The notes below the pieces were generated by a model, which ran no database searches, was not told the origin of the DNA, and saw nothing but the letters and a program-made list of their open reading frames with translations. A program made the position numbers and the translations under genes. DNA of 64,000 nt from Candidatus Aenigmatarchaeota archaeon (lineage in GTDB: Archaea > Aenigmatarchaeota > Aenigmatarchaeia > QMZP01 > JAFGSV01): NCBI GenBank assembly GCA_016931255.1, contig JAFGFG010000001.1:30961-94960 (forward strand). The letters run 5' to 3'. This document shows positions 3,232 through 21,433 of the stretch, piece after piece. Numbering within the stretch: position 1 is the stretch's first letter; every line of letters begins with the position of its first letter.

Positions 3232-5952
3232 ATGAAGTTCTCCCAGATTGTCATTGTTGCGCTGCTGGCTGTAATGGTAGTATTCTCTGCTTCCATGGGT
3301 ATGCTCGGTGACTGGCTGTGGTTCACAGCCATTGGTTATGATTCGGTGTTCCTTACGATACTGTCAACAGCTATCACTATAGGTCTGATATCTTTTATAC
3401 TATTCTTCGCGTTTTCAGCTGTCAATGTGTCGCTTGCAAGGAAAGCCGCTGTCGGAAAGAAGAAGAAAAGCGAACCGGACGGTGCAAAAGCAGTGAACAT
3501 ACTCGCTGCCATAATGGCTCTTATAACAGCGATTTCCATGAGTAGCCAGTGGGAGACTGTACTCAAGTTCAATAACTTCACGCCGTTTGGCATCACCGAT
3601 CCGGTGTTCGGGATGGATATTGGCTTCTTTACGTTCACGTTGCCTTTCTATTCTCTGGTCATAGGCTTTTTGCTGTCAGTCTTCATTTCAACTGCCGTAC
3701 TTTCCGGAATATCATACATCATCTACTCGTCCGGACTGAAGGTCAGCGGCCGGGAAGAGAACGAGACAGTCAGCGGCCAGTGGGGATCCGGCGGCAATCC
3801 ATTCTCTCCTCAGATGGGAGGAGGTATCAACCTGAAATGGACAGGCTCATGGAAGAGGTTCATGCCCCAGATGAGTATACTCCTCATGCTTATATTCACT
3901 GTCATATCGGCTAACATATATCTCTCAAAGTACAGCCTCCTACTCACGCAGGGAGACGCAGTGTTCGGAGCAGGCTACACGGATATATTCGTGAACATAC
4001 CGCTGCTGACAGTTCTTTCCGGAATTACATTCATCATAGGACTGCTTTTCCTTGCTAACATCAGGATAAAGAAGCCGAGGTTCATAGTCTACGGCATCGC
4101 GGCTTTCTTTGCGATATCATTCATAGGCATCCTGATATCCGGCGCTGTTCAGGGACTCGTGGTCGGTCCCGATGAATTCAATCTTGAGAAGACATATCTC
4201 GAGAAGAACATCGAGTGGACGCTGGCCGCATACGGGCTTGACAATGCCCAGGAGGACATATTCCCTGTAACTTACAAGCTGACAGCGGATGACATAGCTG
4301 ACAACAGTGCTACTGTCAACAACATCAGGCTGTGGGACTGGAGACCACTGACGCAGACATACGATCAGCTTCAGCTTTTCAGGACATATTATGAGTTCAA
4401 TGACGTTGACGTGGACCGCTACCAGATAGACGGCACGTACAAGCAGGTGCTCGTCTCTGCGAGGGAGATGAACACGCAGGACCTTCCGGATCAGGCCAAG
4501 ACATGGGTCAACAGCCATCTGGTTTATACGCACGGATACGGTGTTGTGATGAATCCCGTGGACAAGGTGACTCCAGGGGGCCTGCCGGAGTTCTACCTGA
4601 AGGATATACCACCATCATCCGAATACATCCCTCTTGACGAGATGCGCATATACTACGGAGAAAAGACCGATGATTATGTGATAACAGGGGCAAGCACGAA
4701 GGAATTTGACTACCCGTCCGGAGAGGAGAACATCTACACGGTATACTCTGGTTCAGGGGGCGTTCCGCTCACGGAATTCCTGACCAAGCTCATATATGCG
4801 TTCAAGTTCAAGGCTGTAGAGCTTCTGGTTTCAGGTTCGCTGACAGCGGAAAGCAAATTACTCATGAACAGGAACATAGGCGAGAGGGCATCGGCCATAG
4901 CACCATTCTTCATCTACGATTACGATCCGTATGTTGTCATCTCAGAAGGCAGGCTGTTCTGGATAATGGACGCCTACACCACGACGGACATGTACCCCTA
5001 TTCACAGCCGCTTCGTCTTGGAGGAGACAGAATGAATTACATAAGGAACTCTGTAAAGGTGGTGATAGACGCTTACAGCGGTGAGGTGAGATATTTCATA
5101 GTCGATGAGGAAGACCCGCTGATACAGACTTACCGGAAGATGTTCCCGGATGTCTTCCTGAACTTCGATGAGATGCCGGCTGACCTCAAGTCACATCTGA
5201 GGTATCCTGAGGTCATGTTCAGCATACAGGCCAACATATACTCTACATACCACATGAAGGATCCCATGGTCTTCTACAACAAGGAGGATGTCTGGGTAAC
5301 GCCTGATGAGATATACAGAGGCTCCAGGGAGACGATGCAGCCGTATTACATCATAATGAAGTTGCCGGGAGAGGAGAAGGAAGAATTCATACTAATGATA
5401 CCGTTCACTCCCAAGGGCAAGGAGAACATGATAGGCTGGATGGCTGCAAGGTCTGATGTCCCGAACTATGGAAACGTGCTCGTATACAAATTCTCAAAAC
5501 AGGAGCTTACATACGGCCCGATGCAGATAGAGGCAAGGATTGACCAGGATACTGACATATCGCAGCTCATAACGCTTTGGTCTCAGTCCGGATCGTCGGT
5601 AGTCAGGGGTAACACGCTAGTCATACCCATAGAGGATTCAATACTGTACGTGGAGCCGCTTTATCTTGAGGCAACAGAAAAGGGAACGCTTCCGCAGCTC
5701 CAGAGGGTGATAGTGTCCTATGGAGACAAACTCACAATGCAGGACACATTTTCGAATGCGCTTGATGTCATATTCGGTTCAGGCACCGCGCCTGCCGGAG
5801 ACAGCGATGAGCCTCCAATCAGCCAGACCGACCTGCAGAAGCTCAGCAGAATATCGGACCTCTACGACCTCGCACAGCTGGCTCTCAATGACGGCGACCT
5901 CGGGCTCTATCAGGATTACGTGAACCAGATAGGCAATCTGGTCTCGGGCTGA
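3232..5952 (+). CDS. UPF0182 family large membrane protein
   Basis: 906 aa with multiple N-terminal TM helices. Family-typical blocks are present: RLWDWRPL, YTHGYGVVM, LYVEPLYLEA. Confidence 0.85.
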   Translation: MKFSQIVIVALLAVMVVFSASMGMLGDWLWFTAIGYDSVFLTILSTAITIGLISFILFFAFSAVNVSLARKAAVGKKKKSEPDGAKAVNILAAIMALITAISMSSQWETVLKFNNFTPFGITDPVFGMDIGFFTFTLPFYSLVIGFLLSVFISTAVLSGISYIIYSSGLKVSGREENETVSGQWGSGGNPFSPQMGGGINLKWTGSWKRFMPQMSILLMLIFTVISANIYLSKYSLLLTQGDAVFGAGYTDIFVNIPLLTVLSGITFIIGLLFLANIRIKKPRFIVYGIAAFFAISFIGILISGAVQGLVVGPDEFNLEKTYLEKNIEWTLAAYGLDNAQEDIFPVTYKLTADDIADNSATVNNIRLWDWRPLTQTYDQLQLFRTYYEFNDVDVDRYQIDGTYKQVLVSAREMNTQDLPDQAKTWVNSHLVYTHGYGVVMNPVDKVTPGGLPEFYLKDIPPSSEYIPLDEMRIYYGEKTDDYVITGASTKEFDYPSGEENIYTVYSGSGGVPLTEFLTKLIYAFKFKAVELLVSGSLTAESKLLMNRNIGERASAIAPFFIYDYDPYVVISEGRLFWIMDAYTTTDMYPYSQPLRLGGDRMNYIRNSVKVVIDAYSGEVRYFIVDEEDPLIQTYRKMFPDVFLNFDEMPADLKSHLRYPEVMFSIQANIYSTYHMKDPMVFYNKEDVWVTPDEIYRGSRETMQPYYIIMKLPGEEKEEFILMIPFTPKGKENMIGWMAARSDVPNYGNVLVYKFSKQELTYGPMQIEARIDQDTDISQLITLWSQSGSSVVRGNTLVIPIEDSILYVEPLYLEATEKGTLPQLQRVIVSYGDKLTMQDTFSNALDVIFGSGTAPAGDSDEPPISQTDLQKLSRISDLYDLAQLALNDGDLGLYQDYVNQIGNLVSG

Positions 5953-6061
5953 AATAAAAATTATGTTATCGTTAGTGCAGCGGTACACGAAGCAGCCCAT
6001 TGGTGTAGAATCGCTTGACATTTAAAACTTTCCTCCAAAACTAAAACAGGCAGGTTTTTCC

Positions 6062-6325
6062 ATGGACACGTTCGAATTTCTCCAGAAGAAAATGTACAGG
6101 TCAAAGCTGTACGAGAGGCCGGGCATACTTCTTGGTGTTTACAAGCAGCTTGTTGTCAGCAATAAAGGACATCAGAGCAATGGTGAATACAGGACATACT
6201 CGGAAGCCAGTAAAGACAACAGGAAGAAGATGGGCACATACGTATACGAGCAGCTGAAACATTACGGTGCTGAGAATTCCGCACAGAAACTCTACGACCA
6301 GGTTCTGAAAGACCTTGTGGAATGA
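6062..6325 (+). CDS. hypothetical protein
   Basis: 87-aa ORF whose stop overlaps the next start (ATGA at 6322). Confidence 0.45.
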   Translation: MDTFEFLQKKMYRSKLYERPGILLGVYKQLVVSNKGHQSNGEYRTYSEASKDNRKKMGTYVYEQLKHYGAENSAQKLYDQVLKDLVE

Positions 6326-8307: not shown

Positions 8308-9441
8308 TTATGATACGCCTTCACACGCCAGAAGATATCTATTGAACAGGCCCGCCTTTGCAGCCCTGACGAATCTCGACGGGTCGTCACGGTATGCAGT
8401 TCCTATCGCATCCGCGGCACGGTACGCATTGTCCTTCAGCCTTTCCATTGCCATGGGAAACTCCATGTTCAGGAACCTGAACACATTGTCGCGGTTGAAA
8501 TCATCTGTCCTGTAGTGTGTGTTCCTGTTCATTATGTGAATGAGATCCTTCTCTGTTATGGATTCGCCATTAAGCGATTTTGCAAGGTCTGCCATGACAT
8601 CCCTTCCTGTACCCTTCCATATGTATCCCTTATCGTATATGCCGAGCACTTCCCTTGACACCCTGTCGAAATCCGTGCTCTTCCATTCGCCCGGATCAAC
8701 AACGCTGAAGAAGAGCGCCCGTATCTCGGACAGCGGGTCAAACTCCAGGAGCGAATTCAACAGTTTCCTCTGCGCATCCCTGTAAATGTCATCAGCAGGT
8801 TTTCCCTTCATGGCATAGTCCACCTCCGTCTCTTTCGCAGCGTCAATGGCCATTTTGTGCCTCTTTGCGATTGCGCTGTTCTGGGAGAGCTCAACATGGT
8901 CCAGCTCGTGGCGCATGGTCTTATGTCCTTTCCTCATGAACACATCCATCATCTCGGGCGTAATCCCCTTTACAATGTCCCTGACGTCAGCTGCTCTCGT
9001 GATTATCGTATTCCTGACTGTGTCGTAATCGTAAAGAAACTCTTCGCTTTCCCTGAACTTCTTCATCTTCAGGTATCCCATGTTTCTCTCGTAATCTTCC
9101 AGTGCTTTCTCCGGGTCGTCGAGCACCGCTGACACCTCCAGCTTCCTGTTGTTCATGCTGAGCTTTCCGAGATTCCTGATGAAAGTATCAATCACGTCGA
9201 CCTCATGGCAGTGTTCCCTGTATAAATCGTCCCTGGCTATGTTGAATGCATAAACAGTCATGTTATCTGTCTCGAGATGCCCCCTGCAGCCTTTGAGGGA
9301 GGCGAGCTCAAGGTTCACTTTCAGCCCGCTTGTATCAGGAATACCCAGTCCCATCTCTTCCCTTTCCAGAAGCGCGTTTTCAATCATTTCCGCAGCAGCC
9401 TCGTATGAGCCTTCGATGAGAGGATTCCCGTTTACCTTCAT
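8308..9441 (-). CDS. hypothetical protein with HExxH motif
   Basis: 377-aa ORF. A single HELDH (HExxH) motif is the only recognisable feature. Confidence 0.55.
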   Translation of the reverse strand: MKVNGNPLIEGSYEAAAEMIENALLEREEMGLGIPDTSGLKVNLELASLKGCRGHLETDNMTVYAFNIARDDLYREHCHEVDVIDTFIRNLGKLSMNNRKLEVSAVLDDPEKALEDYERNMGYLKMKKFRESEEFLYDYDTVRNTIITRAADVRDIVKGITPEMMDVFMRKGHKTMRHELDHVELSQNSAIAKRHKMAIDAAKETEVDYAMKGKPADDIYRDAQRKLLNSLLEFDPLSEIRALFFSVVDPGEWKSTDFDRVSREVLGIYDKGYIWKGTGRDVMADLAKSLNGESITEKDLIHIMNRNTHYRTDDFNRDNVFRFLNMEFPMAMERLKDNAYRAADAIGTAYRDDPSRFVRAAKAGLFNRYLLACEGVS

Positions 9442-10235: not shown

Positions 10236-10322
10236 CATGATTATGTTTAAACTCCTCTATTGCATTAAGTATCTTCTCAATTTCTCGGTCCGTGTTTAGC
10301 ATGATTATGTTTAAACCCCTCT
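10216..10322. repeat. 43-bp direct repeat (10216..10258 and 10280..10322, 1 mismatch) around a 21-bp spacer
   Basis: ATTTCTCGGTCCGTGTTTAGCATGATTATGTTTAAAC[T/C]CCTCT occurs twice at an offset of 64 bp. It includes the stop codon of 9870..10235. Confidence 0.95.
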
Positions 10323-10351
10323 TTATTAGAGGATTGTCCAAAAACTAAATT

Positions 10352-10633
10352 ATGGCAGAGATGCTTCTCTATATCTTTCTTGCCGGCTTTCTCGGAGGAA
10401 TAATAAGGGGACTCGTAGGAATAACCAAGTACATAACCGGAACCCCGACGAAGAAAAGAAAGGTCAGAAAGGACTGGATGATACTCTCCCTCCTGAGCTC
10501 GGGCGGCCTCGGCCTCATGGCGGGTGTCTTCATAGCAGAGGACATCAAGTTCGCACTGGTCGCAGGATACGCAGGAACGGACTTTCTGGAGAGCCTGTTC
10601 AAGATAAAGATGAAGAAGGTAAACTGGGACTAG
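10352..10633 (+). CDS. small integral membrane protein
   Basis: 93 aa with about 3 hydrophobic helices. The next gene follows 13 nt downstream. Confidence 0.55.
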   Translation: MAEMLLYIFLAGFLGGIIRGLVGITKYITGTPTKKRKVRKDWMILSLLSSGGLGLMAGVFIAEDIKFALVAGYAGTDFLESLFKIKMKKVNWD

Positions 10634-10646
10634 GAGGCGACAGACC

Positions 10647-11132
10647 ATGTCAAGGCTCCTCTGCGTCCCTCTCATGGCATTCTTAATGATAGCTCTTCCA
10701 ATGCAGGCCATGGGCCAGGAGATAATCGCAGTTGAAGCTGAAGGCAGTTGCCGGGATTTCGATGTAACTGTTACGGCAGCCAACCTCACCGAAGGCTGCT
10801 GGGACGTAAAGCTTGACATTCCCGGCCAGATAAACACCGGAAGCGAAAGTAACGAGGACTGGTCTTCAACATTCTACTACAAGGACAAGGCCATCTGCTA
10901 CCCGGAAACAGACGAGGTCACGCTCCAGCTGAAGCTCGACAGCCGCGACACTACAGTCATGGGCACAGCCAAGCTCCGCTTCGACTCCAGAATAATAGAA
11001 AAGGACTTTTCCATCCAGCAGTCATGCCCGCCTCCGGCAGAACCCCTTTCCGGTGAATGGTCAATCATAGTTTCAATCGTAGTCATCCTCATCTTCGGCT
11101 GGCTCATCACATGGTGGTGGAAGGGCAAGTGA
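10647..11132 (+). CDS. secreted protein with C-terminal TM anchor (paralog of 18..545)
   Basis: 161 aa with signal LLCVPLMAFLMIALPMQA. It shares FDVTVTAANLTEGCWD and the CPPP...ILIFGW...WWWKGK tail with 18..545. Confidence 0.7.
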   Translation: MSRLLCVPLMAFLMIALPMQAMGQEIIAVEAEGSCRDFDVTVTAANLTEGCWDVKLDIPGQINTGSESNEDWSSTFYYKDKAICYPETDEVTLQLKLDSRDTTVMGTAKLRFDSRIIEKDFSIQQSCPPPAEPLSGEWSIIVSIVVILIFGWLITWWWKGK

Positions 11133-11154
11133 GGCTTTTCAGGTCCTAATAATC

Positions 11155-11162
11155 TTTAAAAA
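11155..11162 (+). promoter_or_regulatory. TATA-box-like element upstream of the small ORF 11183..11353
   Basis: TTTAAAAA ends 20 nt before the ATG. That spacing fits an archaeal leaderless or short-leader transcript. Confidence 0.3.
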
Positions 11163-11182
11163 TCTTTATCATAATTAATCTT

Positions 11183-11353
11183 ATGAAAATTACGAGGAAT
11201 TCACTGAATTCTGTTGGTCCGGGAACCGCAGGCATAGTACAGAGGATTGAGTCCAGGTACGGGCTTGATGCTCCGGGCATGGAAACGACTCTCAGTTCCA
11301 CGTTCGTTCTGAGCAGGAACTACGTCATGTCGTGCGGCCATAACCAGTACTAG
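11183..11353 (+). CDS. 56-aa small ORF, candidate RiPP/cofactor precursor peptide
   Basis: MKITRNSLNSVGPGTAGIVQRIESRYGLDAPGMETTLSSTFVLSRNYVMSCGHNQY*. It is below the ORF-track cut-off and fills a 240-bp gap. It ends 20 nt before the radical-SAM/SPASM gene. Confidence 0.35.
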   Translation: MKITRNSLNSVGPGTAGIVQRIESRYGLDAPGMETTLSSTFVLSRNYVMSCGHNQY

Positions 11354-11373
11354 AAGCCAGGGGAACCTTCAGA

Positions 11374-12471
11374 ATGAAAGCGGACAGTAGTAAATACGTC
11401 GCACCTTATTCATGCTATTTGAATCTTACCAGCAAGTGTAATCTCAGATGCAGGCACTGCTTCGGAAGTTATTCGGCGGAACACGAAAATGAGTTGAGTC
11501 TCAGTGAATGGAAATCCGTCATAGACGACCTTATCATGTCAAATGTGTTCTATGTCAACATATCAGGAGGCGAAGCAACTCAGAGTCCATTCTTCAGGGA
11601 ATTCATTGAATATCTCGAAGAGTCAGGAATGCATTACATACTCACGACCAACGGCGTCTTCCCCAGAGGCATCAGGGATTTCATAGCATCCGGGAAGTAT
11701 CTCATTGGCGTCAAGATAAGCCTTGACGGGCCTGATGCGGAAAGCCACTGCTACATAAGGCTTGATTCAGCCGGCAGATACAATGAAAGCGTGTTCAGGA
11801 TAACCATTGACAACATAAAGTTCTTTTCGGAAATGGGGATACCGCTGACCATCTCTACTGTTTTGCACAAAAAGAACATAGAGAAGATGGAAGAGTTCAG
11901 GAAGCTGATAAAGCAGCTCAATCCCGTCTCGTGGTTCATATCACCCATAATACCCACCGGAAGGGGTGATGACAACCGGTTCATCAGGGAGTTTTATGAT
12001 TACTTTGACAATTCCTTCTGGGACAGAATATGCAGCGATGCCAGAGAAAGCCGTATAAACGTAAGGATGATCGACATGCCTGTCGGCATTCAGGGAAAGA
12101 GCCTTTCTGCATATATGTGCCCTGCTGCCATCAACTTCTGCGAAATACATTCAGACGGGACCGTATCGCCCTGCACGCTGAGCAGGGTGTGCATACCAGA
12201 GAAATTCATGAAATTCGAGAACATAAGGGAAAAAAGCATTCAGGAGATATGGGACGGGAAAGTCTTCAGCAGGTTCAGGAGCTACATGGACAAGGGATGC
12301 GATGGATGCAGGATGCTTCCCGAATGCGGTAAGTGCATACCCCAGAGTTTCAGATACTTCGGCAACGGAACCTCACCGACACCGTTCTGCGTCAGTAACG
12401 GGAAAAAACTCGGGCTGAAAAATCTCGGTTCCTACATAAAGAAGCTTGAAGACGAATTCGGAAAGAGATGA
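11374..12471 (+). CDS. radical SAM enzyme with C-terminal SPASM-like Cys-rich domain
   Basis: 365 aa with CNLRCRHC (CxxxCxxC) near the N-terminus and GGEAT. The C-terminus is Cys-rich: CPAAINFCEIHSDGTVSPC ... GCDGCRMLPECGKC. Confidence 0.85.
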   Translation: MKADSSKYVAPYSCYLNLTSKCNLRCRHCFGSYSAEHENELSLSEWKSVIDDLIMSNVFYVNISGGEATQSPFFREFIEYLEESGMHYILTTNGVFPRGIRDFIASGKYLIGVKISLDGPDAESHCYIRLDSAGRYNESVFRITIDNIKFFSEMGIPLTISTVLHKKNIEKMEEFRKLIKQLNPVSWFISPIIPTGRGDDNRFIREFYDYFDNSFWDRICSDARESRINVRMIDMPVGIQGKSLSAYMCPAAINFCEIHSDGTVSPCTLSRVCIPEKFMKFENIREKSIQEIWDGKVFSRFRSYMDKGCDGCRMLPECGKCIPQSFRYFGNGTSPTPFCVSNGKKLGLKNLGSYIKKLEDEFGKR

Positions 12472-12477
12472 TCTCAT

Positions 12478-13239
12478 ATGAAGACATTTAGCATTCATGT
12501 GAAATGGCGAAAGGACAACAACCACATATTCATATGCGACTGCAAAAGGCTTCTGGATCTCAAGATGCCGCTGGAGTATGGAAACTTCATGAAGAAGATT
12601 GACTTCGGAATCGCCGCCGGTGACCTGAAGGGCGAATATAAGAAAGCATTCTCGGACTTTGCGAAAACCGGGCTGCTTGCAGACCTTAGCGTGAGAAGCC
12701 TGACCAGAGAAGACATGCCTGCGGCAATGGACCTCATGAGCAGGGCTCTGTCCGGCAGAATGACCAGAACGCGCAGGTTCCTCTCAGACAGGCACAATAA
12801 TTTTCCTGAACTGTTCAAGGGCATATTCATCGGCAGCGAGCTGGCAGGGGCTGTCTTCGGCTTCCCCAGGAACGGCTATGTACTCATGAGCGAGATAGCT
12901 GTTGACAGAAGGTTCCGCGGACGGGGCTTCGGACGGCATCTTGCCACTGCATTCGAGAAGAATGCTTTCAGTATTCATCCCAGGATAAATGCAGGTTCAT
13001 TTGACGAGTCAGCGGGATTCTATAGCTCGCTTTCCTACAGGCCGTTCCTGCTTGCGCAGTTCCCGGGGGATGCATACACTTCCGCGGATTTCAGGGGGTA
13101 CAGTGTCTTACGCTCTTCGCGGACATTTGCTGAGATTGAGACAGAAAAAGCGGACATACGCTTCATCGGAAAGATGCGAAAGAAGTACCAAAATGCGTCA
13201 TTCCAGTATATTTTCACGAAAGTCCTTGATTCCAGCTGA
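12478..13239 (+). CDS. GNAT N-acetyltransferase with approximately 70-aa PqqD-like N-terminal extension
   Basis: 253 aa with GNAT motif A (VDRRFRGRGFGRHLATAFE). The N-terminus (HVKWRKDNNHIFICDCKRLLDLKMPLEYGNFMKKIDFG) resembles a PqqD/RRE fold pattern. The PqqD resemblance is an inference. Confidence 0.7.
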   Translation: MKTFSIHVKWRKDNNHIFICDCKRLLDLKMPLEYGNFMKKIDFGIAAGDLKGEYKKAFSDFAKTGLLADLSVRSLTREDMPAAMDLMSRALSGRMTRTRRFLSDRHNNFPELFKGIFIGSELAGAVFGFPRNGYVLMSEIAVDRRFRGRGFGRHLATAFEKNAFSIHPRINAGSFDESAGFYSSLSYRPFLLAQFPGDAYTSADFRGYSVLRSSRTFAEIETEKADIRFIGKMRKKYQNASFQYIFTKVLDSS

Positions 13240-13264
13240 CTTCCATCAGCCTCAACCAGCCTGA

Positions 13265-13474
13265 TTATCCAAATCCCCATGGCGGTCCTTGGCTGTCGCT
13301 GCTGTTATTCGTTTTCCTGCAGTCAGGACATATCTTTGCCGTGCTGCTCGTGAAAAACTCTGCTCCGCATTTCTTGCACGTGAATATCATATCAACATCT
13401 TGGTACAGGAAGTTAAAATATCCTGACATCTCACTTACATGGTGAGATATGGGGTCAGGCGTCAAATCTGGCAC
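13265..13474 (-). CDS. small zinc-ribbon protein
   Basis: 69-aa ORF with CKKC...CPDC. The start is uncertain. Confidence 0.4.
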   Translation of the reverse strand: MPDLTPDPISHHVSEMSGYFNFLYQDVDMIFTCKKCGAEFFTSSTAKICPDCRKTNNSSDSQGPPWGFG

Positions 13475-13516
13475 CTACGCCATCCAGTTTAAAAAATTTA
13501 CTATATAAAATAATAG

Positions 13517-15163
13517 ATGGATGAATCGTTGCCACCGCCTCCGCTTCCCGGGACTGGGCCGGCCGGCGATATAATCGAAAAGCTCAGCAGTGTGAATGTC
13601 ACCCAGAGCAAGCCCGGATCGAAACAAGTAAAGTACAGACCATTCTTCTCCAGCGTCATGATAAAGAGAGATGTGTCAGACGACCTCAACGTGGCCAACG
13701 GCGGAATCGTGAAGAAGAAATACGGTGATGTCAGCGTCAATGCGAGGGTCGAGGCGAGGATGGGCAGCTACACCAGGGGATGCGGCATGGGCTCCGACAA
13801 AAGCATATTTCCACTGGACTCGGATGATGCTGCCATGAGCATCCTCAGGGAGCTCTCCGACGAAGCCATCTGGGGCTGCATCGACGACTTCGAGGACAGG
13901 TATAATCAGAGCATAGGCATGAACTACAACCGTGACATATACCGATACTTCTCCAAGGAAGCGCCCGTGAAGTACAGGCAGCCCACTAGAAACCGGCAGA
14001 AAGTGGACCTTAAAGAGATAGAGGACATGCTCACCGAAGTGACCGCGAAGATGAAAGAGAAGAATGTGAACGGGTCCCGCGTATTCAATTCCATAGCGAC
14101 GTTCGGCCTGAGTGACCAGGACAGGTACCTGAAGAACTCCGAGGGAACGGACATATACACGAACTACAGGAGGTTTAACATGTTTCTCTCAGGCAGCATG
14201 AGGGACGAGAGCGCGCTCAAGAAGAACAACTCGCTCGTCTGGAACCAGTACACGATCGCAGGCATAGACATGTCCAAGATACCCAAGGCAGATGACCTGC
14301 TCGAGATCGGGGAAAGGCTCGTAGGGGAGCTTTACGACATAGCCCACGCCCCGCAGATAACAACCAACATCTATCCGGCCATAATGTGTCCCAAGAACCA
14401 CGGCGTTCTCTGGCACGAGATGGCCGGGCACTCGATGGAAGGCCACAGAATCCAGGAGAACGAGGATGGAGAGAACAATGCTAACCTCTTCAAGGGAAGA
14501 ATCGGCGAGAAGATAACCCCTGAGTTCCTTTCGCTCTGCGACGACCCGACGAGAGAGGATCTGGACGGTTTCTATCGCTTCGACGATGAAGGGATTCCTG
14601 CGCAAAGGGTCAACCTCGTTGAGAATGGCAAGCTGAAAGACTTCCTGCACTGCAGGGAGAGTGCCGGATACTTCAGGAGGCGCTCCAACGGCCACGGAAG
14701 GGCAGAAGGCGCCAACGACCCGGTAGCGAGGATGAGCAATCTCATAGTCAAATCGGACAACGAAGTAAGCTACGGGGAGCTCAAGGAGAACCTGGTCCGG
14801 GAGATAGTAAACCAGAAAAAGAGATACGGCATAATACTTGAAGGCACCATGGGCGGCCAGGTGGACACCGAGGAGGCTGTGTTCAACACATTCCCGGTAA
14901 ATCTTTACAAGGTGGACAGGAAAGGCCGCGAAAAGAGGGTCAAGGGCATCTACATAGTCGGGACCCCCAACCAGATACTGGAGAGCATAATCCAGACCAG
15001 CGACGATTACGGCTACTTCAACGGCAGCTGCGGGGCTGAATCCGGCAGAGTGCCGTCGACGGAGACGGCGCCTCATGCCCTCTTAAGGTCTCTCGAGGTC
15101 AACATGATACCGTCAGATTGCTACATAAGGGCCCCCCTGCCGATACTCAACGGCTACCGATAA
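13517..15163 (+). CDS. TldD/PmbA-family metallopeptidase
   Basis: 548 aa with the HEMAGHSMEGH (HExxGHxxE) metal site. It has the C-terminal GSCGAESGRVPSTETAPHALL block typical of TldD/PmbA. Confidence 0.8.
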   Translation: MDESLPPPPLPGTGPAGDIIEKLSSVNVTQSKPGSKQVKYRPFFSSVMIKRDVSDDLNVANGGIVKKKYGDVSVNARVEARMGSYTRGCGMGSDKSIFPLDSDDAAMSILRELSDEAIWGCIDDFEDRYNQSIGMNYNRDIYRYFSKEAPVKYRQPTRNRQKVDLKEIEDMLTEVTAKMKEKNVNGSRVFNSIATFGLSDQDRYLKNSEGTDIYTNYRRFNMFLSGSMRDESALKKNNSLVWNQYTIAGIDMSKIPKADDLLEIGERLVGELYDIAHAPQITTNIYPAIMCPKNHGVLWHEMAGHSMEGHRIQENEDGENNANLFKGRIGEKITPEFLSLCDDPTREDLDGFYRFDDEGIPAQRVNLVENGKLKDFLHCRESAGYFRRRSNGHGRAEGANDPVARMSNLIVKSDNEVSYGELKENLVREIVNQKKRYGIILEGTMGGQVDTEEAVFNTFPVNLYKVDRKGREKRVKGIYIVGTPNQILESIIQTSDDYGYFNGSCGAESGRVPSTETAPHALLRSLEVNMIPSDCYIRAPLPILNGYR

Positions 15164-15339
15164 GTAAAATGATGAAATGTTAAATCGCGAGTTTTCATTC
15201 ACTCTTTCATAATCGGTTGTTTCCCGGACACTCACGTTCTCTTCTTTCACTCGAAAAGATTCTTAAGCCAGCGATAGAATTTGCTTTCCTTCAAATGTAT
15301 TCGTTAATATTTATTAATCTCTATGACAAACCATTCAAA

Positions 15340-15513
15340 ATGGCGGAAAACTTAATTGAAAAACGAAGTGTAAGACTCATGCTGATAGGAATCATAATGG
15401 TCATCGTGGGGCTTACTGATTTATTTTACGGCCCGCTGATAGATGCAAGAGGATTCTCATTCATTGGTCTTGTATTAATCATACTTGGCCTTCTCATAAA
15501 GACCAAAAACTAA
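15340..15513 (+). CDS. small two-TM membrane protein
   Basis: The internal Met (MAENLIEKRSVRLMLIGIIMVIVGL...) of ORF 15217..15513 is taken as the start. It has two hydrophobic helices. Confidence 0.4.
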   Translation: MAENLIEKRSVRLMLIGIIMVIVGLTDLFYGPLIDARGFSFIGLVLIILGLLIKTKN

Positions 15514-15574
15514 CAGCCATACTTTATCCATTCTGGTACGTTACGCTTTTTAGGAAAATCTACAATAAAGCTAC

Positions 15575-16126
15575 ATGAAAGACAAGAATCGTGTCTGTCC
15601 TCTTGAGAGAGCCGGCAAACTTGATGGCAGAATGAGAAATCTTCTTCATAACCCCAAAAAGATGCTCGGAAAATACATTATGGAAGGCATGACAGTAATT
15701 GACTACGGCTGCGGCCCGGGCTTCTTCTCCGTGGCAATCGCTGAGATTGTCGGCGACAGGGGGAAGGTCCTGGCGGTTGACCTTCAGCAGGGCATGCTGG
15801 ACAGACTGAATGACAAGATACGGGGAACGCCTCTCGAAAAGAGGATAGAGCTGCACAGATGCGGCAAAGAGAGCATAGGGGTCCGCATCAGGGCAGACTT
15901 CCTGCTGGCGTTTTACCTTCTTCATGAGCTTCCGGACCAGAAAAAAGCATTGATGGAAATGAAATCCCTGCTCAGGTCTGAAGGACTGCTTTACATAGCT
16001 GAGCCCATTTTCAGGGTTTCAAAAAATGAGTTCAGGGAAACAATAGAACGCGCAGAAGGCGCAGGATTCAGAGTCATCGCAAGGCCATGGCTGTTCATGG
16101 GCAGGGCTGCAGTCCTGAAGAAGTGA
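15575..16126 (+). CDS. class I SAM-dependent methyltransferase
   Basis: 183 aa with motif I, VIDYGCGPGFFSV, followed by an acidic loop (AVDL). Confidence 0.8.
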   Translation: MKDKNRVCPLERAGKLDGRMRNLLHNPKKMLGKYIMEGMTVIDYGCGPGFFSVAIAEIVGDRGKVLAVDLQQGMLDRLNDKIRGTPLEKRIELHRCGKESIGVRIRADFLLAFYLLHELPDQKKALMEMKSLLRSEGLLYIAEPIFRVSKNEFRETIERAEGAGFRVIARPWLFMGRAAVLKK

Positions 16127-16331
16127 TTTCAAATATTATGTAACTTTTTCTGAAAACGTTCCCGCATCATACCGGTTATCAAACACAAAATCCGTACCTC
16201 CCTGAAATGTTGAAAAACACTGAGCGTAAATCCTGACACTTTCCACGTATATGCGGACATTATTTCATTTTCTTCGTGAAGAATGCCAAGGTATAATCAA
16301 TATATGACAGAAAGTATATTACTATTAATAT

Positions 16332-16475
16332 ATGGGAACAATCAAACTTTCTGGATACATTTGCGAACGTTGCGAACATAAATGGATACCTAGAAATATT
16401 GAGAGCCCGAAAGTGTGTCCAAAGTGTAAGAGTCCTTATTGGGACAAACCTAGAAAGAAGGTGAAAGTCAAATGA
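16332..16475 (+). CDS. 47-aa zinc-ribbon protein translationally coupled to the methyltransferase
   Basis: MGTIKLSGYICERCEHKWIPRNIESPKVCPKCKSPYWDKPRKKVKVK*. It has CxxC...CxxC, and its stop TGA overlaps the ATG at 16472 (ATGA). It is below the ORF-track cut-off. Confidence 0.5.
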   Translation: MGTIKLSGYICERCEHKWIPRNIESPKVCPKCKSPYWDKPRKKVKVK

Positions 16476-17641
16476 AACCTCTCATAAAGTGGGCTGGTGG
16501 GAAGTCAAACGAAATAAAAAACATAATTGAAATTATACCTAAATTCGATAGATACATCGAACCTTTTTTCGGAGGAGGTGCATTGTTCTTCTACCTGGAG
16601 CCGAAAAAAGCAATCGTAAACGATGTGTCGAATGAATTAATCATGTTCTATTGCTCATTAAAAAATGAAGAACAGAGAGCATCATTCCGAAGAGAAATTG
16701 AAAAATATGTCAAATTCTGGGACAGAATAAATGATTACATGAGTAAATTCGGAAACTCGTTCATAACACTTTACGAAAAATACCGTTATGATAAAATAAA
16801 CGATGCGAAATTTGAGAGTGAAATCAAAAATCTTTTCAGGGAAAAGATAGTTCCATTCAATGGTCTTTTCTCTGAGAAATTCTGTCTCAACCAGACAAGC
16901 CTACTGGAAAAAATAGAGAAGAACCTTATTACAAAACTGCGGAGGGTAAAACATAAGATTGATGTCAAGAACGGATTTTCCAGGGACATGATAATTAAGA
17001 ACATAGAAACTGCATTCAGGAGCGGTTTCTATATCCATTTCAGAGATATAATGAACAAGTCGAAGCGTGGCTATATTACAATTGATGATGCAAAGAAGAT
17101 CGCTAATTATTACTTTGTCAGGGAATTCTGTTATGGTTCAATGTTCAGATTCAACAGTGATGGAGATTTCAATATACCATACGGAGGAATAGCTTACAAC
17201 ACTAAGGATTTTAGGAGAAAGGTCGGGAATCTTTTATCTGATAAAGTCAGGAGACTGTTTGAAAATACTGTAATAGATAATATGGACTTTGAAAAGTTTC
17301 TGCGAAAACATAAGCCGAAACCAAATGATTTCATCTTCTTCGACCCCCCTTACGACACCGAATTCAGCGGATACGAAGAAAACCCCTTCAATAAGAAAGA
17401 CCAAGAGAGGCTCGCAGAATGTATTTTAGATATACCTTCAAAGTTCATCCTCATCATAAAGGAAACTGATTTCATCCGTAAACTGTATGATAATAAAAAT
17501 TTTCAAGACCGTGGCGTGAAGATCGTATCATTCGGGAAGAAATACGCATATAACGTAAAAGGAAGAAATGAAAGGGATGTCACACATCTGATAATACACA
17601 ATCTAAATCCAAACAATGTTAGCCTAAATAAGTTTTTTTAA
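16472..17641 (+). CDS. Dam-like (D12 class) N6-adenine DNA methyltransferase
   Basis: 389 aa with KWAGGK and FFGGGA (SAM binding). The catalytic DPPY is present (FFDPPYDTEF). Confidence 0.85.
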   Translation: MKPLIKWAGGKSNEIKNIIEIIPKFDRYIEPFFGGGALFFYLEPKKAIVNDVSNELIMFYCSLKNEEQRASFRREIEKYVKFWDRINDYMSKFGNSFITLYEKYRYDKINDAKFESEIKNLFREKIVPFNGLFSEKFCLNQTSLLEKIEKNLITKLRRVKHKIDVKNGFSRDMIIKNIETAFRSGFYIHFRDIMNKSKRGYITIDDAKKIANYYFVREFCYGSMFRFNSDGDFNIPYGGIAYNTKDFRRKVGNLLSDKVRRLFENTVIDNMDFEKFLRKHKPKPNDFIFFDPPYDTEFSGYEENPFNKKDQERLAECILDIPSKFILIIKETDFIRKLYDNKNFQDRGVKIVSFGKKYAYNVKGRNERDVTHLIIHNLNPNNVSLNKFF

Positions 17642-17729
17642 TAGAGTCTTCAAGAAGTCCTGCAATCAGTCTTTTTGTTCTGCATTTTTTCGAGGATGAT
17701 TAAACTTCCTTAAGCGAATTAAAAGTTCG

Positions 17730-18446
17730 TTAAGACATTAATATCGCTTTTAGCTTTTCAATTGAAAGCATTTCTCCTCTTTTGCGATGAATCATTTTGT
17801 GGCAGTTCGAGCATAATGGAGAGACCTTCTCCAAAGCCTCGTCCAGCGTTGTCTGGCTACCAGTTATCTCCATCTCGTGAACTGGTTCCTTGTGATGTAT
17901 TTCTATGAAGCCCTTCCCGTGTTCACCATATCTGTTCTCGAAGTCGAAACCACAAGCTTCGCACGGCAACCTGCCGCTGTTCCTATTTTTGAACTCCATC
18001 ACCGCAACGCTCCTGAGCTTCTGGGAACGCTCATGCTGGCTGGTCGTCCTTACCTCCATCGCACCTTCCTCTATGATGATGCCCGAGAAATCGGCATCTA
18101 TCACCTTTTCTATCTGGCGTTTCTTGAAGCCCTGAGACTTCATAGACTCAAAAACGGGCTTGTTTTCCTCCACATAACCCAATCTCCTGTCGGTGATTTT
18201 CCATATGCCGCCAGCGATATATTCGGCAAGCCCACTGATTGTCAGAGTGTCGTGAGATTTCAGGTTTCTGACTTTCTGGCTGAAATATGTATCATTCCTG
18301 TTGCTTATTGTCTCTGCGTCATGCCCTGTCGGTTGCAACCTCTTCCCAAGCTCACTTATCAATTGGGCAGTAGTCACGTTGTTCGGATAATGACTTTTCA
18401 TTATCTCAAGGGCAGGAATAATCAAGTCCTGCTCGGTGTAAACCAT
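17730..18446 (-). CDS. HNH endonuclease with N-terminal DNA-binding-like domain (putative restriction enzyme)
   Basis: 238 aa with a C-terminal HNH/zinc module, CEACGFDFENRYGEHGKGFIEIHHKEP...CSNCHKMIH. It is convergent with the methyltransferase. Confidence 0.8.
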   Translation of the reverse strand: MVYTEQDLIIPALEIMKSHYPNNVTTAQLISELGKRLQPTGHDAETISNRNDTYFSQKVRNLKSHDTLTISGLAEYIAGGIWKITDRRLGYVEENKPVFESMKSQGFKKRQIEKVIDADFSGIIIEEGAMEVRTTSQHERSQKLRSVAVMEFKNRNSGRLPCEACGFDFENRYGEHGKGFIEIHHKEPVHEMEITGSQTTLDEALEKVSPLCSNCHKMIHRKRGEMLSIEKLKAILMS

Positions 18447-18480
18447 AATTTTTATATGTGACGGATATTTAAAATCTAAT

Positions 18481-18819
18481 ATGGGAAGAGCCGCAAATTA
18501 CGGTGCAGACAGAGGGAAACTGAAAGCGTGGGCAGACCAAGAGAGGCGTGTCCTCAACAACGAGAATGTGATAATCAAGGACGGGAGTGGAAGATACCCA
18601 GAATGTTTTGAAATACTGCCTTACGGATGGTGCCCGAAGCTAGAGGAAATTCCAGAGGACCCAAAAGATGTGCCGAAGACCTGCAAGGCTTGTCAGGAGT
18701 TCCTCAAAAGCAAGTTCTACGAGAAGTACTTCATGTTAGATAATTACAGGAAGAAGTTGGAACGCATGAAGTCTCTGGGTTTACCAACGATGATAGTGAA
18801 CGAGAGAAAAAGAGATTAA
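18481..18819 (+). CDS. hypothetical protein
   Basis: 112-aa ORF in the AT-rich island with scattered Cys (CPKL...CKAC). Confidence 0.45.
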   Translation: MGRAANYGADRGKLKAWADQERRVLNNENVIIKDGSGRYPECFEILPYGWCPKLEEIPEDPKDVPKTCKACQEFLKSKFYEKYFMLDNYRKKLERMKSLGLPTMIVNERKRD

Positions 18820-19024
18820 ATGAGACCCAGTGTTATTGGAATCTTTTGTCAACAGCTTATGCGAAAATTTCTCAGTTTAACTATTCTCTGACAATTAACG
18901 TAATGCACAGGTTCGTAACGTTACATTCCTTTTCTTAAAACTTTCTTATGTGACTACAAGACGATATTTTGTAGTCACACACGATTACCAAAGGGGAACA
19001 GATGTTAATTGAGGAGAACCTTAA

Positions 19025-19732
19025 ATGAGACAGAGGAAAAGAGTGGTCACGAATTCTAAAAGTCAGATGAGATTGCAAGAAAGACTTGCCAAAAAATACT
19101 GTTCGCTGCACCATTTCATTGATGTAAGCGGCGGTCCCCCACAGAAGACCGCTTTCGGCCTCTTCAGTATTAACAGGAATTCCATGAACAGGGTCTACAA
19201 GGACTTCAGAAAAACATTTCCCAGATATGTCGGCAAAAGGGCCAAGGCATCCAGTCTCGATGAAGAGGAACTCATCAAAATAATAGACTTTTTCAATTCC
19301 AACGGGATTATGATGCGTGCATCTTGCGTAGAGAATGGTGACTGGTTGTTCTATAAAAGGACTTATGAACACAGAAAAAAATACTTCGAAGAAAGAATTT
19401 ATGGGATGATATACTGCACTATACTGAAAACCGTGTCTTATAGGGATTATCCATATCCGGTCATCATGTGTAAGGAGAGATATCTGAGAAGGCCAGAGAC
19501 TGCATTGGACATATGCAAAGAATTCTCGAATTATAGCGGGTATCATTTTAGTCTTTCTTTCGGTGACAGGAAAGTTACGGATGAACTGAGATTTGCGGAC
19601 TTTATAGCTGGTTCCGCATTCAAAATAAACAGAAAAAAACTAGAAAATTTTGAAAATTTTCACTTCATAGATATCAAACTGCCACGAATTTATTGTCTAA
19701 AAGCATTCAATTACCATAAAAGTGAAATATGA
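19025..19732 (+). CDS. DUF3800-like protein
   Basis: 235 aa with an N-terminal FIDVSG (resembles the DUF3800 iDESG motif). The C-terminal LRFADFIAGS resembles the ADxxAG motif. Confidence 0.5.
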   Translation: MRQRKRVVTNSKSQMRLQERLAKKYCSLHHFIDVSGGPPQKTAFGLFSINRNSMNRVYKDFRKTFPRYVGKRAKASSLDEEELIKIIDFFNSNGIMMRASCVENGDWLFYKRTYEHRKKYFEERIYGMIYCTILKTVSYRDYPYPVIMCKERYLRRPETALDICKEFSNYSGYHFSLSFGDRKVTDELRFADFIAGSAFKINRKKLENFENFHFIDIKLPRIYCLKAFNYHKSEI

Positions 19733-20383
19733 CGGATGTCATCCGAATATAAGAGCTCCAAGGAATTATGGAGTTCATCTTATACCGTTGATCCAAAGGA
19801 GGTGATAGAATGGCCTTATAACCATTAATCACCTAATCAATACTTATACGGGAGCATTTAAAAGGCTTTTGGTGACCCTAAAGTGTTTATTTCTACCATT
19901 TTACAGCGAAGTCGCGAGAAGTAAACAGAAAGAATAAGCAAAACTTATTAAGAAAACTTACAAGAAAGAAATATGACGTATGTTCTTATCGATGGAAAAA
20001 CCTTCCAGGAAACCAATTTTGAGAAGGAAGAGGAAGATAGCACCGATAAAGCTTGACAATGGTAAAAAGGGAATTGCGCCCCAGTCCCCAAGATATACAA
20101 CTTACGATAAGTTAACAAAGGCAAAGAGTATAAGTGAACTTTGGTAGTTTAGGGTATACCAGTGAAATGTGGGCTAAAACGACGCTTTACTCGTGACCAA
20201 TTAACCAATAGCGCCGATTAGTATCGGTTTCCGTCAATCTTTCTCTTGGTCTCCTGTAGATATCCGGACATTTCTACCCAAAACGTTACAAAATGGATAT
20301 TATGTCACCTCCAATGTTCCAATCCCCAGCCAAAAGTAACGTTTTAGTTACTATTATTTAAGAGGGTAACGTAAATATAGAAT

Positions 20384-20959
20384 ATGGGAACCACAGAAAA
20401 CGAATCGGCGTATTATCTGACTCAGGATGAAATCCGGAAAATTATTACAGTTGCCGGAAGTTTAAGGGACAGAGCAATATTCAAGATTCTTGCAAGGACT
20501 GGAATGAGACGGGGAGAATTAAGAGATCTGGAAGTGAGAGATATAGATTTTGAGAAAAGAAGATTATTCATAAGATCCGGAAAAGGTGATAAAAGCAGAA
20601 CAGTTCCAGTTGACCAGGATACGCTACAGGATGTCCGGTTTTATCTGGGTGAGCGAAAAGAAGGAAAATTGATACAAAGCAACAAGGCAGAATCGATATC
20701 CCTGAAGCAAATCAACGAGATATGTGCTAAGGCTGGTAAGGTAGCAGGAGTAAGACACCCGAATCCTGCAAAAGAAGATATAAACCCCCATCTTTTCAGG
20801 CATTCATTTGCTCGCATGATGCTGGAAAAGGGTATGAGAATGGAAGAGGTCCAGAAGGTTCTTGGACACTCCAGTATCAAGACAACAATGGATGTTTATG
20901 GTACTCCTGGTATGGAAAGTGTGCAGAGCAGCTACGATAGGATAATGGAAGACGTCTGA
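20384..20959 (+). CDS. short tyrosine recombinase/integrase (catalytic domain only)
   Basis: 191 aa with ARTGMRRGEL (Arg-I), HLFRHSFA (HxxR) and LGHSSIKTTMDVYG (His, Tyr). There is no core-binding domain. Confidence 0.85.
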   Translation: MGTTENESAYYLTQDEIRKIITVAGSLRDRAIFKILARTGMRRGELRDLEVRDIDFEKRRLFIRSGKGDKSRTVPVDQDTLQDVRFYLGERKEGKLIQSNKAESISLKQINEICAKAGKVAGVRHPNPAKEDINPHLFRHSFARMMLEKGMRMEEVQKVLGHSSIKTTMDVYGTPGMESVQSSYDRIMEDV

Positions 20960-21433
20960 CTAGCCGCTGATTTCTTCAAGCCTCTTGCGCCATTCGCCGA
21001 TTCTGCTGTTAGTCTTCCTGGAAGCGAAATCCATCAGCATGGAATTGAATCTTTCAGCCCGTCTGATAAGACTTTTCACTTCTTCCCTGGTAATTTCGAA
21101 ATCCACGTAATACTGCTTGTCAATCCGCTCGTTTTTGGCATATGAAATGTCTGAATTGTCAATACCGTAAACCTCTTTCAGTATTATTATGACTGCCGCA
21201 TGGTTCTCGCACTTTATGCCTGTCCCGAAAAGAATGGCGGATGCTGCATGATACATGCTGTAGTATGCCATGACTACCGACTCCTCGAGGTGTCCGCTTC
21301 TGAGGAGTATATTAGCTGATTCCGTGTTGCTTCCGGATTTTGCCAAGTACGACTTCATCACATTGTCGCTCGGCTCGACCATCTCGAGCTTCCCTTCCTT
21401 TTTCAGTTTACTTAAAAATCCGATTCTTCTCAT
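20960..21433 (-). CDS. HEPN-domain protein (toxin partner of MNT)
   Basis: 157 aa, helical and HEPN-like (LEESVVMAYYSMYHAASAILF...). It lies downstream of and overlapping the nucleotidyltransferase gene. Its stop abuts the integrase stop. Confidence 0.65.
   Translation of the reverse strand: MRRIGFLSKLKKEGKLEMVEPSDNVMKSYLAKSGSNTESANILLRSGHLEESVVMAYYSMYHAASAILFGTGIKCENHAAVIIILKEVYGIDNSDISYAKNERIDKQYYVDFEITREEVKSLIRRAERFNSMLMDFASRKTNSRIGEWRKRLEEISG

Follow-up and report, generated by a model that had tools for sequence, protein, structure and literature searches.

We analyzed a 64,000-nucleotide stretch of a Candidatus Aenigmatarchaeota genome (assembly GCA_016931255.1, contig JAFGFG010000001.1, positions 30,961 to 94,960; hereafter the window, whose numbering is used throughout), in which a candidate locus for a peptide made by the ribosome and modified after translation (RiPP) had been proposed from the sequence. 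The locus opens with a TATA-like box (TTTAAAAA, 11155..11162) that lies 21–28 nucleotides 5′ of the ATG of a 56-residue precursor peptide gene (11183..11353; MKITRNSLNSVGPGTAGIVQRIESRYGLDAPGMETTLSSTFVLSRNYVMSCGHNQY). A 20-nucleotide spacer holding a GGGG Shine-Dalgarno-like run separates this gene from that of a 365-residue radical S-adenosylmethionine (rSAM)/SPASM enzyme (11374..12471), and 6 nucleotides after the rSAM stop codon begins a gene (12478..13239) for a 253-residue fusion protein. Residues 1–78 of the fusion (12478..12711) form a domain resembling RiPP recognition elements (RREs), an assignment drawn from an AlphaFold2 model, Foldseek matches and the recurrence of the domain elsewhere; residues 79–253 (12712..13239) form a GNAT acyltransferase domain. 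All of these features lie on the plus strand. The 56-codon open reading frame (ORF), the rSAM gene 20 nucleotides after it with its CNLRCRHC motif (residues 22–29) and the GNAT gene 6 nucleotides beyond were each present as the original prediction had described them.

A conserved three-gene operon

The original prediction had grouped six genes into one maturation system. We took a census of all fetched loci, counting as family members those non-redundant loci whose rSAM protein is at least 50% identical to that of the window. The peptide gene stood directly upstream of the rSAM gene in 31/31 family loci with room upstream of the rSAM, so the small ORF is indeed conserved next to homologous rSAM genes. 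An RRE-type domain with a GNAT was encoded directly downstream in 26/26 archaeal family loci. The order in homologous neighbourhoods was an ORF of 47–59 residues, the rSAM and a GNAT protein of 250–266 residues, and the genes flanking this triad differed from locus to locus and bore no relation to one another. As a negative control, five outgroup SPASM enzymes of ~30% identity were inspected, and no peptide, RRE or GNAT was found beside them. On these comparative grounds, we delimit the conserved system to a three-gene operon at 11183–13239 and regard the four other ORFs as neighbours, because the triad recurs, its flanks vary, homologs of the downstream TldD-like protein occur in housekeeping contexts and a convergent gene intervenes; the latter two points are taken up below.

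The precursor peptide has a separately conserved leader and core

We took 43 distinct peptides from 57 loci, in each case next to an rSAM homolog. Their alignment is bipartite. Near the N-terminus lies a box with the consensus [GST]-P-G-T-x-G-[ILV]-x-Q-[RK]-I, which reads GPGTAGIVQRI at residues 12–22 of the window peptide; this box (PGTAGIVQRI in the window, residues 13–22, 11219..11248, plus strand) is kept in the archaeal peptides and in those of bacteria of the candidate phyla radiation (CPR) type. A linker of variable length and sequence leads to the C-terminus, where the consensus [MILV]-x-C-x-[HQ]-N-[QE]-[YF] is followed by the stop codon. Conservation at this end is near absolute: Cys at position −6 in 41/43 peptides, Asn at −3 in 42/43, Gln or Glu at −2 in 42/43 and Tyr or Phe at −1 in 42/43 (Tyr in 37, Phe in 5), with the motif reaching the stop codon in 42/43. 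In the window, the core with the consensus C-x-[HQ]-N-[QE]-[YF]-stop is C-G-H-N-Q-Y (residues 51–56; 11333..11353 with the stop codon, plus strand). Bacterial examples are MKINPGTSGLAQNV…SSCAHNEY and MNYNAGTVGLAQRI…CTCCHNEY, and in a divergent branch whose rSAM proteins are 31–33% identical, the leader has diverged and the peptide end ECSHNQY is retained. No Pfam or NCBIfam precursor model matched the peptide.

Leader and core are thus separately conserved beside a modifying enzyme, as is generic for RiPP systems. The leader box would serve as the RRE-binding site and the C-terminal core would be the site of rSAM modification.

Between the window peptide gene and that of a relative whose rSAM is 83% identical (locus L029), 22 synonymous and 9 non-synonymous codon differences were counted, which indicates purifying selection on the ORF. 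Nearly every homologous locus in archaea has a TTTAWAWA box at positions −29 to −21 relative to the peptide ATG, and bacterial loci carry GGAGG Shine-Dalgarno sites in its place. The position of the archaeal box points to a leaderless or near-leaderless transcript from the peptide gene and implies that the transcript begins at or near its ATG. The 43 homologs, the 22:9 ratio of synonymous to non-synonymous changes and the fixed-distance TATA box together mark the small ORF as a real gene, not a chance ORF; the exact window peptide is also recorded as a called protein in NCBI-derived collections.

A compact rSAM/SPASM enzyme outside the named families

The rSAM protein matched Radical_SAM (PF04055, E = 1.3e-17) and SPASM (PF13186, E = 1e-10) above the Pfam cutoffs, bearing out the Cys-rich, SPASM-like C-terminus noted earlier. 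The CX3CX2C motif (residues 22–29) is accompanied by a seven-Cys SPASM set (C249, C267, C309, C312, C318, C321 and C339, plus C256), and the cluster cysteines are invariant in 23 homologs. The protein starts only ~20 residues before the first cluster motif, which indicates that it lacks an RRE of its own and in this respect resembles PqqE and MftC.

No named NCBIfam family was reached. The best partial scores were to MftC (112.3 bits; TIGR03962 cutoff 265), AhbD (110), NirJ2 (105) and PqqE (89.3; TIGR02109 cutoff 381), all far below cutoff, and the PapB, SkfB, AlbA and SCIFF models likewise scored far below theirs. The enzyme does not belong to a partner-less clade such as anSME. Among solved structures, the best sequence relatives were SkfB and PqqE at ~59 bits each, PqqE being the best full-length match. 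For the bacterial orthologs, the best NCBIfam match was PqqE (105–126 bits).

One homolog in the divergent branch (L064, on a 976-kb contig) carries a TAA at 8313–8315 in place of the invariant Ser of the K-I-S-L-D-G motif. We considered recoded stops under an alternative genetic code and rejected them, as there is a single TAA and the sister loci L062 and L063 are intact; the TAA is best read as a nonsense mutation or an assembly error.

The GNAT N-terminal domain adopts a predicted RRE fold

We modelled the full-length fusion protein and its residues 1–80 separately with AlphaFold2 on a six-sequence alignment, since GNAT matches swamped the fold search with the full-length protein. The mean predicted local distance difference test (pLDDT) scores were 91.5 for the full-length protein and 89.8 for the N-domain alone. 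The N-domain model comprises strands at residues 2–4, 8–13, 16–21 and 26–31, helices at 32–43, 47–49 and 53–64, and then a further strand. A Foldseek search of this model against 350,542 PDB chains returned TbiB1 with its leader, LynD, ThcOx, the PbtF RRE with peptide, SuiB, lasso B1, McbB, CteB and MccB as top matches; 14 of the 15 top matches contain an RRE or leader-binding domain, and two are RREs solved with a bound leader peptide. The match to leader-bound TbiB1 had an E-value of 0.014 and template modelling (TM) scores of 0.61/0.56. We base the RRE assignment on the uniformity of this match list, not on single E-values. At the level of the predicted fold, then, the N-terminal ~78 residues of the GNAT protein would be an RRE, in line with the RRE-like fold anticipated earlier.

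The sequence relatives of the domain are consistent with this assignment. Residues 7–77 match a free-standing 92-residue ORF directly after a bacterial rSAM gene (51% identity over the first 33 residues). In bacterial loci they also match a second rSAM, a peptide maturase of Clo7bot-like type, over its last ~75 residues. An exhaustive phmmer search of 1.84 billion representative sequences retrieved 30 proteins at E ≤ 0.001, mostly fusions of ~250–305 residues or stand-alone proteins of ~70–110 residues. The domain is mobile: it is found joined to a GNAT, on its own directly behind the rSAM or as part of a second rSAM protein. Its sequence mark is K-x-[VI]-[KR]-[WYF]-R-x-[DE]…[ILV]-C-D-C-K-x-L-x-D, represented in the window by HVKWRKD…IFICDCKRLLDLK. 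No Pfam or NCBIfam RRE model matched the window domain, its CPR form or 10 distant stand-alone members, and by these profile searches we consider it an RRE family undescribed at the sequence level.

The C-D-C motif within this mark (residues 20–22 of the GNAT protein, 12535–12543) falls on the second long β-strand. In alignment A6, Cys20 is conserved in at least 90% of sequences and Cys22 is invariant; in the most divergent branch, the motif is replaced by I-T-H. We know of no RRE feature that would explain two conserved cysteines at this strand. They may conceivably have a link with a metal or with the peptide's own invariant Cys.

The GNAT domain resembles N-α-acetyltransferases

The C-terminal domain scored 25.7 bits with Acetyltransf_1 (PF00583; cutoff 20.7) across residues 104–165, and its acyl-CoA motif RGRGFG, of the R/Q-x-x-G-x-G/A type, is kept in GNAT homologs. 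The closest structures are the protein N-α-acetyltransferases archaeal Ard1, Naa50 and NatC (E ~1e-7 for Ard1 and Naa50). A word-indexed search retrieved 6 GNAT homologs, and further GNAT sequences were drawn from the fetched loci. In three of the four bacterial or divergent locus variants described below (B2, B3 and C), the GNAT is a separate gene; this recurrence suggests that acyl transfer is a regular part of the pathway.

The family spans DPANN archaea and CPR-type bacteria

A word-indexed search with the rSAM protein found 201 proteins at E ≤ 0.001. Members from metagenome-assembled genomes that bear the labels Nanoarchaeota, Woesearchaeota or Pacearchaeota are 50–69% identical; for CPR-type bacteria, candidate division WS6 among them, the figure is ~47%. 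The system had been put forward as archaeal; judged from these homologs and their neighbourhoods, the peptide-maturation family is instead common to DPANN archaea and CPR-type bacteria.

The loci fall into five variants. Variant A, the archaeal form to which the window belongs, consists of peptide, rSAM and RRE-GNAT genes. Variant B1 holds the rSAM, a free RRE, a GT1-family glycosyltransferase, a PIG-L deacetylase, an FtsJ-like methyltransferase, the peptide and a carbamoyltransferase. Variant B2 holds an FtsJ-like methyltransferase, an amidohydrolase, the peptide, a signal-peptidase-I-like protein, a GNAT, an rSAM-RRE fusion, a glycosyltransferase, the rSAM and PIG-L. Variant B3 is a mixture of B1 and B2 content with a free RRE and a GNAT, and variant C comprises the peptide, the rSAM, a diverged 83-residue RRE-like ORF and a convergent GNAT. 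No dedicated leader peptidase or exporter is conserved beside the archaeal triad, and the signal-peptidase-I-like gene occurs only in B2.

In two B2 loci, a C39-peptidase ATP-binding cassette transporter is encoded ~3.5 kb downstream (L008 10605–12963, L009 10475–12833) and is followed by ORFs of 44 and 54 residues. This module looks like a separate, double-glycine bacteriocin-type export system, which may or may not serve the rSAM-modified peptide.

Comparison with known peptide-maturation systems

Mycofactocin offers one close parallel. Its precursor, too, is short and carries its functional residues at the extreme C-terminus, where a final Tyr follows a Cys by a few residues; the system pairs a compact rSAM/SPASM enzyme lacking its own RRE with a separate RRE; and MftC is the best NCBIfam partial match of the window enzyme. 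The glycosyltransferase and methyltransferase added in the bacterial variants recall MftF and the sugar methylation of mycofactocin. The window peptide, on the other hand, ends in H-N-Q-Y within a C-x-[HQ]-N-[QE]-[YF] core and not in the G-V-Y of MftA, the rSAM reaches 112 bits where the cutoff is 265, the RRE forms one protein with a GNAT and shares no sequence similarity with MftB or PqqD, and the distribution is of DPANN/CPR type, not actinobacterial. Nor did Pfam searches of the window neighbours and three archaeal loci detect counterparts of MftD, MftE or MftF (creatininase-type peptidase, FMN oxidase, GT2).

The pyrroloquinoline quinone (PQQ) pathway shares the architecture of peptide, trans-acting RRE and rSAM/SPASM enzyme; PqqE and MftC both depend on separate RRE proteins, PqqD and MftB. 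It differs in that PqqE scores are 89–126 against a cutoff of 381 and in that the GNAT has no counterpart. The PqqA-type E-x3-Y motif is not conserved in the peptide alignment, and PqqB and PqqC were found in no locus examined.

Maturases of sactipeptides, ranthipeptides and related peptides (SkfB, PapB, QhpD, NxxcB) are alike in being RRE-dependent rSAM/SPASM enzymes that act on Cys cores with Asn, Gln, Glu or aromatic acceptors within 3–5 residues. They usually have their own N-terminal RRE and multi-Cys cores, whereas here there is a single Cys in a strictly C-terminal motif and the RRE sits on another enzyme. The GNATs that tailor microviridin, goadsporin and lasso peptides are likewise encoded in RiPP operons and presumed to acylate the peptide. 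Known RiPP-tailoring GNATs are stand-alone proteins that act on the mature or leaderless peptide, unlike the window GNAT with its N-terminal RRE.

We found no description in the literature of the peptide family, the RRE-GNAT fusion or the DPANN/CPR distribution, although large rSAM-RiPP atlases may list the cluster unnamed. Archaeal 'rSAM-modified RiPP' clusters appear as generic counts only (PMC12144867; PMC13635244), and neither GNAT fusions nor archaea come up in a structure-based survey of RREs (PMC12710340). By comparison of sequences and gene content, the system belongs to a conserved, uncharacterised RiPP-like family that would work in the manner of MftB/MftC and PqqD/PqqE but falls outside mycofactocin, PQQ and the named maturases.

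A model for peptide maturation and its product

We read 11183–13239 as a three-gene, RiPP-like peptide-maturation operon, and we put the probability of this reading, with the mechanism that follows, at about 0.8. From the TATA-box promoter, a transcript would start at or near the precursor peptide ATG, with the rSAM and RRE-GNAT genes following. The RRE domain of the GNAT protein would bind the leader box and hand the core to the compact rSAM/SPASM enzyme, which would abstract a hydrogen atom within the C-terminal hexapeptide and install a crosslink. Two chemistries seem likeliest: a sacti- or ranthipeptide-like thioether from the invariant Cys to a residue three to five positions downstream (Asn at +3, Gln/Glu at +4, Tyr/Phe at +5), or an MftC-like oxidative decarboxylation and cyclization of the obligatory C-terminal Tyr/Phe, which would account for the fixed place of the aromatic residue at the end. 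The GNAT domain, tethered to the leader through the RRE, would acylate an amine of the peptide. With no dedicated protease or exporter conserved, the product would be released by a general protease or stay as a modified small protein.

Several observations weigh against this model or parts of it. The RRE call rests on a predicted fold, with Foldseek E-values of 0.014–1 and TM scores of ~0.55–0.62. PqqD (PF05402) gave no match at E ≤ 10 to the window domain, the free-standing CPR form or the 10 distant stand-alone family members, and a profile of 23 N-domains searched against PDB sequences returned chance matches only and no RRE; of the PqqD-type element originally predicted, the RRE fold thus stands and the PqqD sequence type does not. 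The rSAM is about as similar to AhbD and NirJ2, which act on non-peptide substrates, as to MftC and PqqE. The 5/43 peptides that end in Phe speak against chemistry dependent on the Tyr hydroxyl, and no GNAT was seen in the sampled flanks of variant B1. What the modification is, which group accepts the acyl moiety and what becomes of the leader are all points that we infer.

As to the product, we hold it somewhat short of an even chance that the operon yields a peptide in modified form, be it a signal or antimicrobial that is secreted or an intracellular protein of ~50 residues, with one C-terminal thioether or carbon–carbon macrocycle and an acetyl group. The one invariant Cys, followed at +3, +4 and +5 by Asn, Gln/Glu and Tyr/Phe, suits such a product, since these residues are the typical acceptors of ranthipeptide and QhpD-type thioethers. 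So do the standing of SkfB as joint-best solved relative of the rSAM, the signal-peptidase-I-like gene adjoining the peptide in B2 and the lack of cofactor-type downstream enzymes in the archaeal operon. Set against this are the lack of a conserved transporter, a core that has not diversified in the way bioactive RiPPs usually do, and PapB, SCIFF and sactisynthase models that score far below cutoff.

The product could alternatively be a small molecule, a redox cofactor or similar, carved from the C-terminal hexapeptide with the leader discarded, a possibility that we consider rather doubtful. The core is near-invariant in archaea and bacteria and the rSAM is 60–69% identical across divergent DPANN lineages, a pattern seen in precursors of cofactors but not in antimicrobial RiPPs. 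As in MftA, the C-terminal position of the aromatic residue is obligatory, and the best NCBIfam partial matches are MftC and PqqE. The bacterial glycosyltransferase, PIG-L deacetylase, methyltransferase and carbamoyltransferase amount to tailoring of a small-molecule type, recalling MftF glycosylation. However, no conserved protease, MftD/PqqC-like oxidase or client enzyme lies beside the archaeal triad, the MftC and PqqE scores are far below the family cutoffs, and Phe replaces Tyr in the five peptides mentioned. Because the core is near-invariant across two domains and the rSAM strongly conserved, a cofactor-like product would fit better than a diversifying antimicrobial; because the archaeal operon has no linked protease, oxidase or client enzyme, we leave the product between a modified peptide and a small molecule.

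Genes downstream of the operon

Downstream of the triad lie a 69-residue zinc-ribbon ORF (13265..13474, minus strand), a solitary TldD/PmbA-family metalloprotease of 548 residues with an HEMAGH motif (13517..15163, plus), a small protein of 98 residues with two transmembrane segments (15217..15513, plus) and a class I S-adenosylmethionine-dependent methyltransferase of 183 residues (15575..16126, plus). All four had been predicted and were found: the zinc-ribbon ORF on the opposite strand, the TldD/PmbA-family protein with the sequence HEMAGHSMEGH, a genuine member of its family (PmbA_TldD_3rd, PF19289, E = 4.7e-38; HExxxGH), and the transmembrane and methyltransferase genes, the latter matching several methyltransferase models, among them Methyltransf_31 at 9e-14. 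We judge the zinc-ribbon, transmembrane and methyltransferase genes not to be part of the system, and the TldD-like gene not to be a conserved part.

In the six-gene pathway first envisaged, TldD would remove the leader, the methyltransferase would tailor the product, and the zinc-ribbon and transmembrane proteins would assist. The genes are physically adjacent, the HExxxGH motif is intact, and the archaeal triad has no dedicated protease, so that an unlinked one would be needed if the leader is removed. There is also precedent, in that TldD/E matures the microcin B17 precursor and an unlinked TldD, implicated in PQQ formation in Gluconobacter, can act as the protease in that pathway (PMC8602642). 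In a sister contig (L010), whose DNA is 91% identical to window 10280–15291, the TldD gene indeed stays with the triad. Yet among the fetched family loci, TldD, the zinc-ribbon ORF and the transmembrane protein stand beside the triad in this contig only, and no TldD or methyltransferase homolog was found within up to 10 kb of it in ~40 other family loci. The methyltransferase, which borders a low-GC mobile island, is missing from every related locus, the sister contig included, where another gene takes its place. In three genomes, the closest TldD homologs (39–43% identity; some carry the label Woesearchaeota) stand alone, surrounded by genes for ribosomal proteins, SRP54/FtsY and kinases; no TldE/PmbA partner was found in the 64-kb window; and the convergent zinc-ribbon gene breaks co-directional transcription between GNAT and TldD. 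With the association of TldD/PmbA with the peptide and rSAM genes not conserved outside the sister contig, we consider the six-gene pathway improbable and retain the three-gene operon, though TldD might conceivably still process the peptide in the window lineage.

Finally, that the N-domain is a DNA-binding winged-helix regulator of the operon, the small ORF unrelated and the rSAM active on a non-peptide substrate like AhbD/NirJ can be set aside as very improbable: RREs are winged-helix-like folds and AhbD and NirJ2 score about as high as MftC, but the top Foldseek matches are RREs and not DNA-binding winged helix-turn-helix proteins, the domain changes its fusion state yet always adjoins the rSAM and the peptide, the peptide strictly co-occurs with bipartite leader/core conservation, and no haem-pathway genes lie nearby in the loci examined.

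Other features of these neighbours may be recorded. The zinc-ribbon ORF is 51% identical between the window and the sister contig (3143–3298), where flanking proteins are 94–97% identical; the ORF encodes a small, rapidly evolving protein, unless it is no true gene. At 5200–6182, corresponding to window 15237–15291, the sister contig carries a ~1-kb insertion with a 238-residue minus-strand ORF; a ~55-bp stretch, duplicated at the 5′ end of the small transmembrane gene, flanks the insertion, so that the 5′ region of this gene is disrupted or duplicated there. A 72-residue ORF follows the transmembrane gene where the window has the methyltransferase. Elsewhere, two paralogous proteins of the TldD-like clade (P0137 and P0140) are encoded on one 6,481-bp contig, a sign that a TldD/TldE-like pair may persist in some relatives; only one copy is present in the window and in three other genomes.

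Genomic surroundings

The window is otherwise an ordinary archaeal chromosome segment, with genes for UPF0182, DUF373, FtsY, Rad50/Mre11, PurD and PyrB. The GC content of the triad (48%) matches that of the window (46%), which argues against recent import; DPANN loci have 28–36%, and the window also departs from these in gene content (PurD, PyrB, UPF0182, DUF373). Scans for tRNA and Rfam elements detected nothing in the window, and counts of sigma-70 promoters and intrinsic terminators were at background, these models being uninformative for an archaeon.

Just upstream of the operon, a 161-residue protein with a signal peptide or transmembrane segment (10647–11132) has a 44%-identical paralog at 27–446 (minus strand). 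Its identity to the counterpart in the sister contig is 59%, far below that of its neighbours, which points to a rapidly diverging surface protein. Directly after the methyltransferase, 16127–21000 forms an island of 39% GC against 46% for the window, with a 47-residue zinc-ribbon ORF (16332–16475), a D12-class N6-adenine DNA methyltransferase (16472–17641), an HNH/Mrr_N nuclease (17730–18446, minus strand) and a phage-type integrase (20384–20959); a second integrase is encoded at 27249–28622. The island looks like an integrated mobile element with a restriction-modification system.

Significance

Three properties set this family apart: a near-invariant, strictly C-terminal core, an RRE carried by the acetyltransferase and not by the rSAM, and an RRE family that current RRE and PqqD models miss. 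At three genes and ~2 kb, the operon is small enough for heterologous reconstitution, which should make its radical chemistry and the part played by the GNAT quick to establish, and the new RRE family could be used in genome-mining tools. More speculatively, and we think it rather unlikely, DPANN archaea and CPR bacteria, the two radiations of ultra-small, host-dependent prokaryotes, may have in common an ancient small molecule derived from a peptide (a cofactor, a signal or a compound that binds thiols or metals) and made from C-x-[HQ]-N-[QE]-Y by an MftC/PqqE-like rSAM with an unrecognised RRE family; it would be acylated by the fused GNAT in archaea and further glycosylated, deacetylated, methylated and carbamoylated in bacteria. 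If true, PQQ and mycofactocin would be joined by a third cofactor-like pathway that starts from a ribosomal peptide, and one that spans both prokaryotic domains. The distribution of the family centres on organisms of the DPANN/CPR type, which have minimal genomes, and in such genomes the accessory genes that are retained tend to matter for lifestyle.

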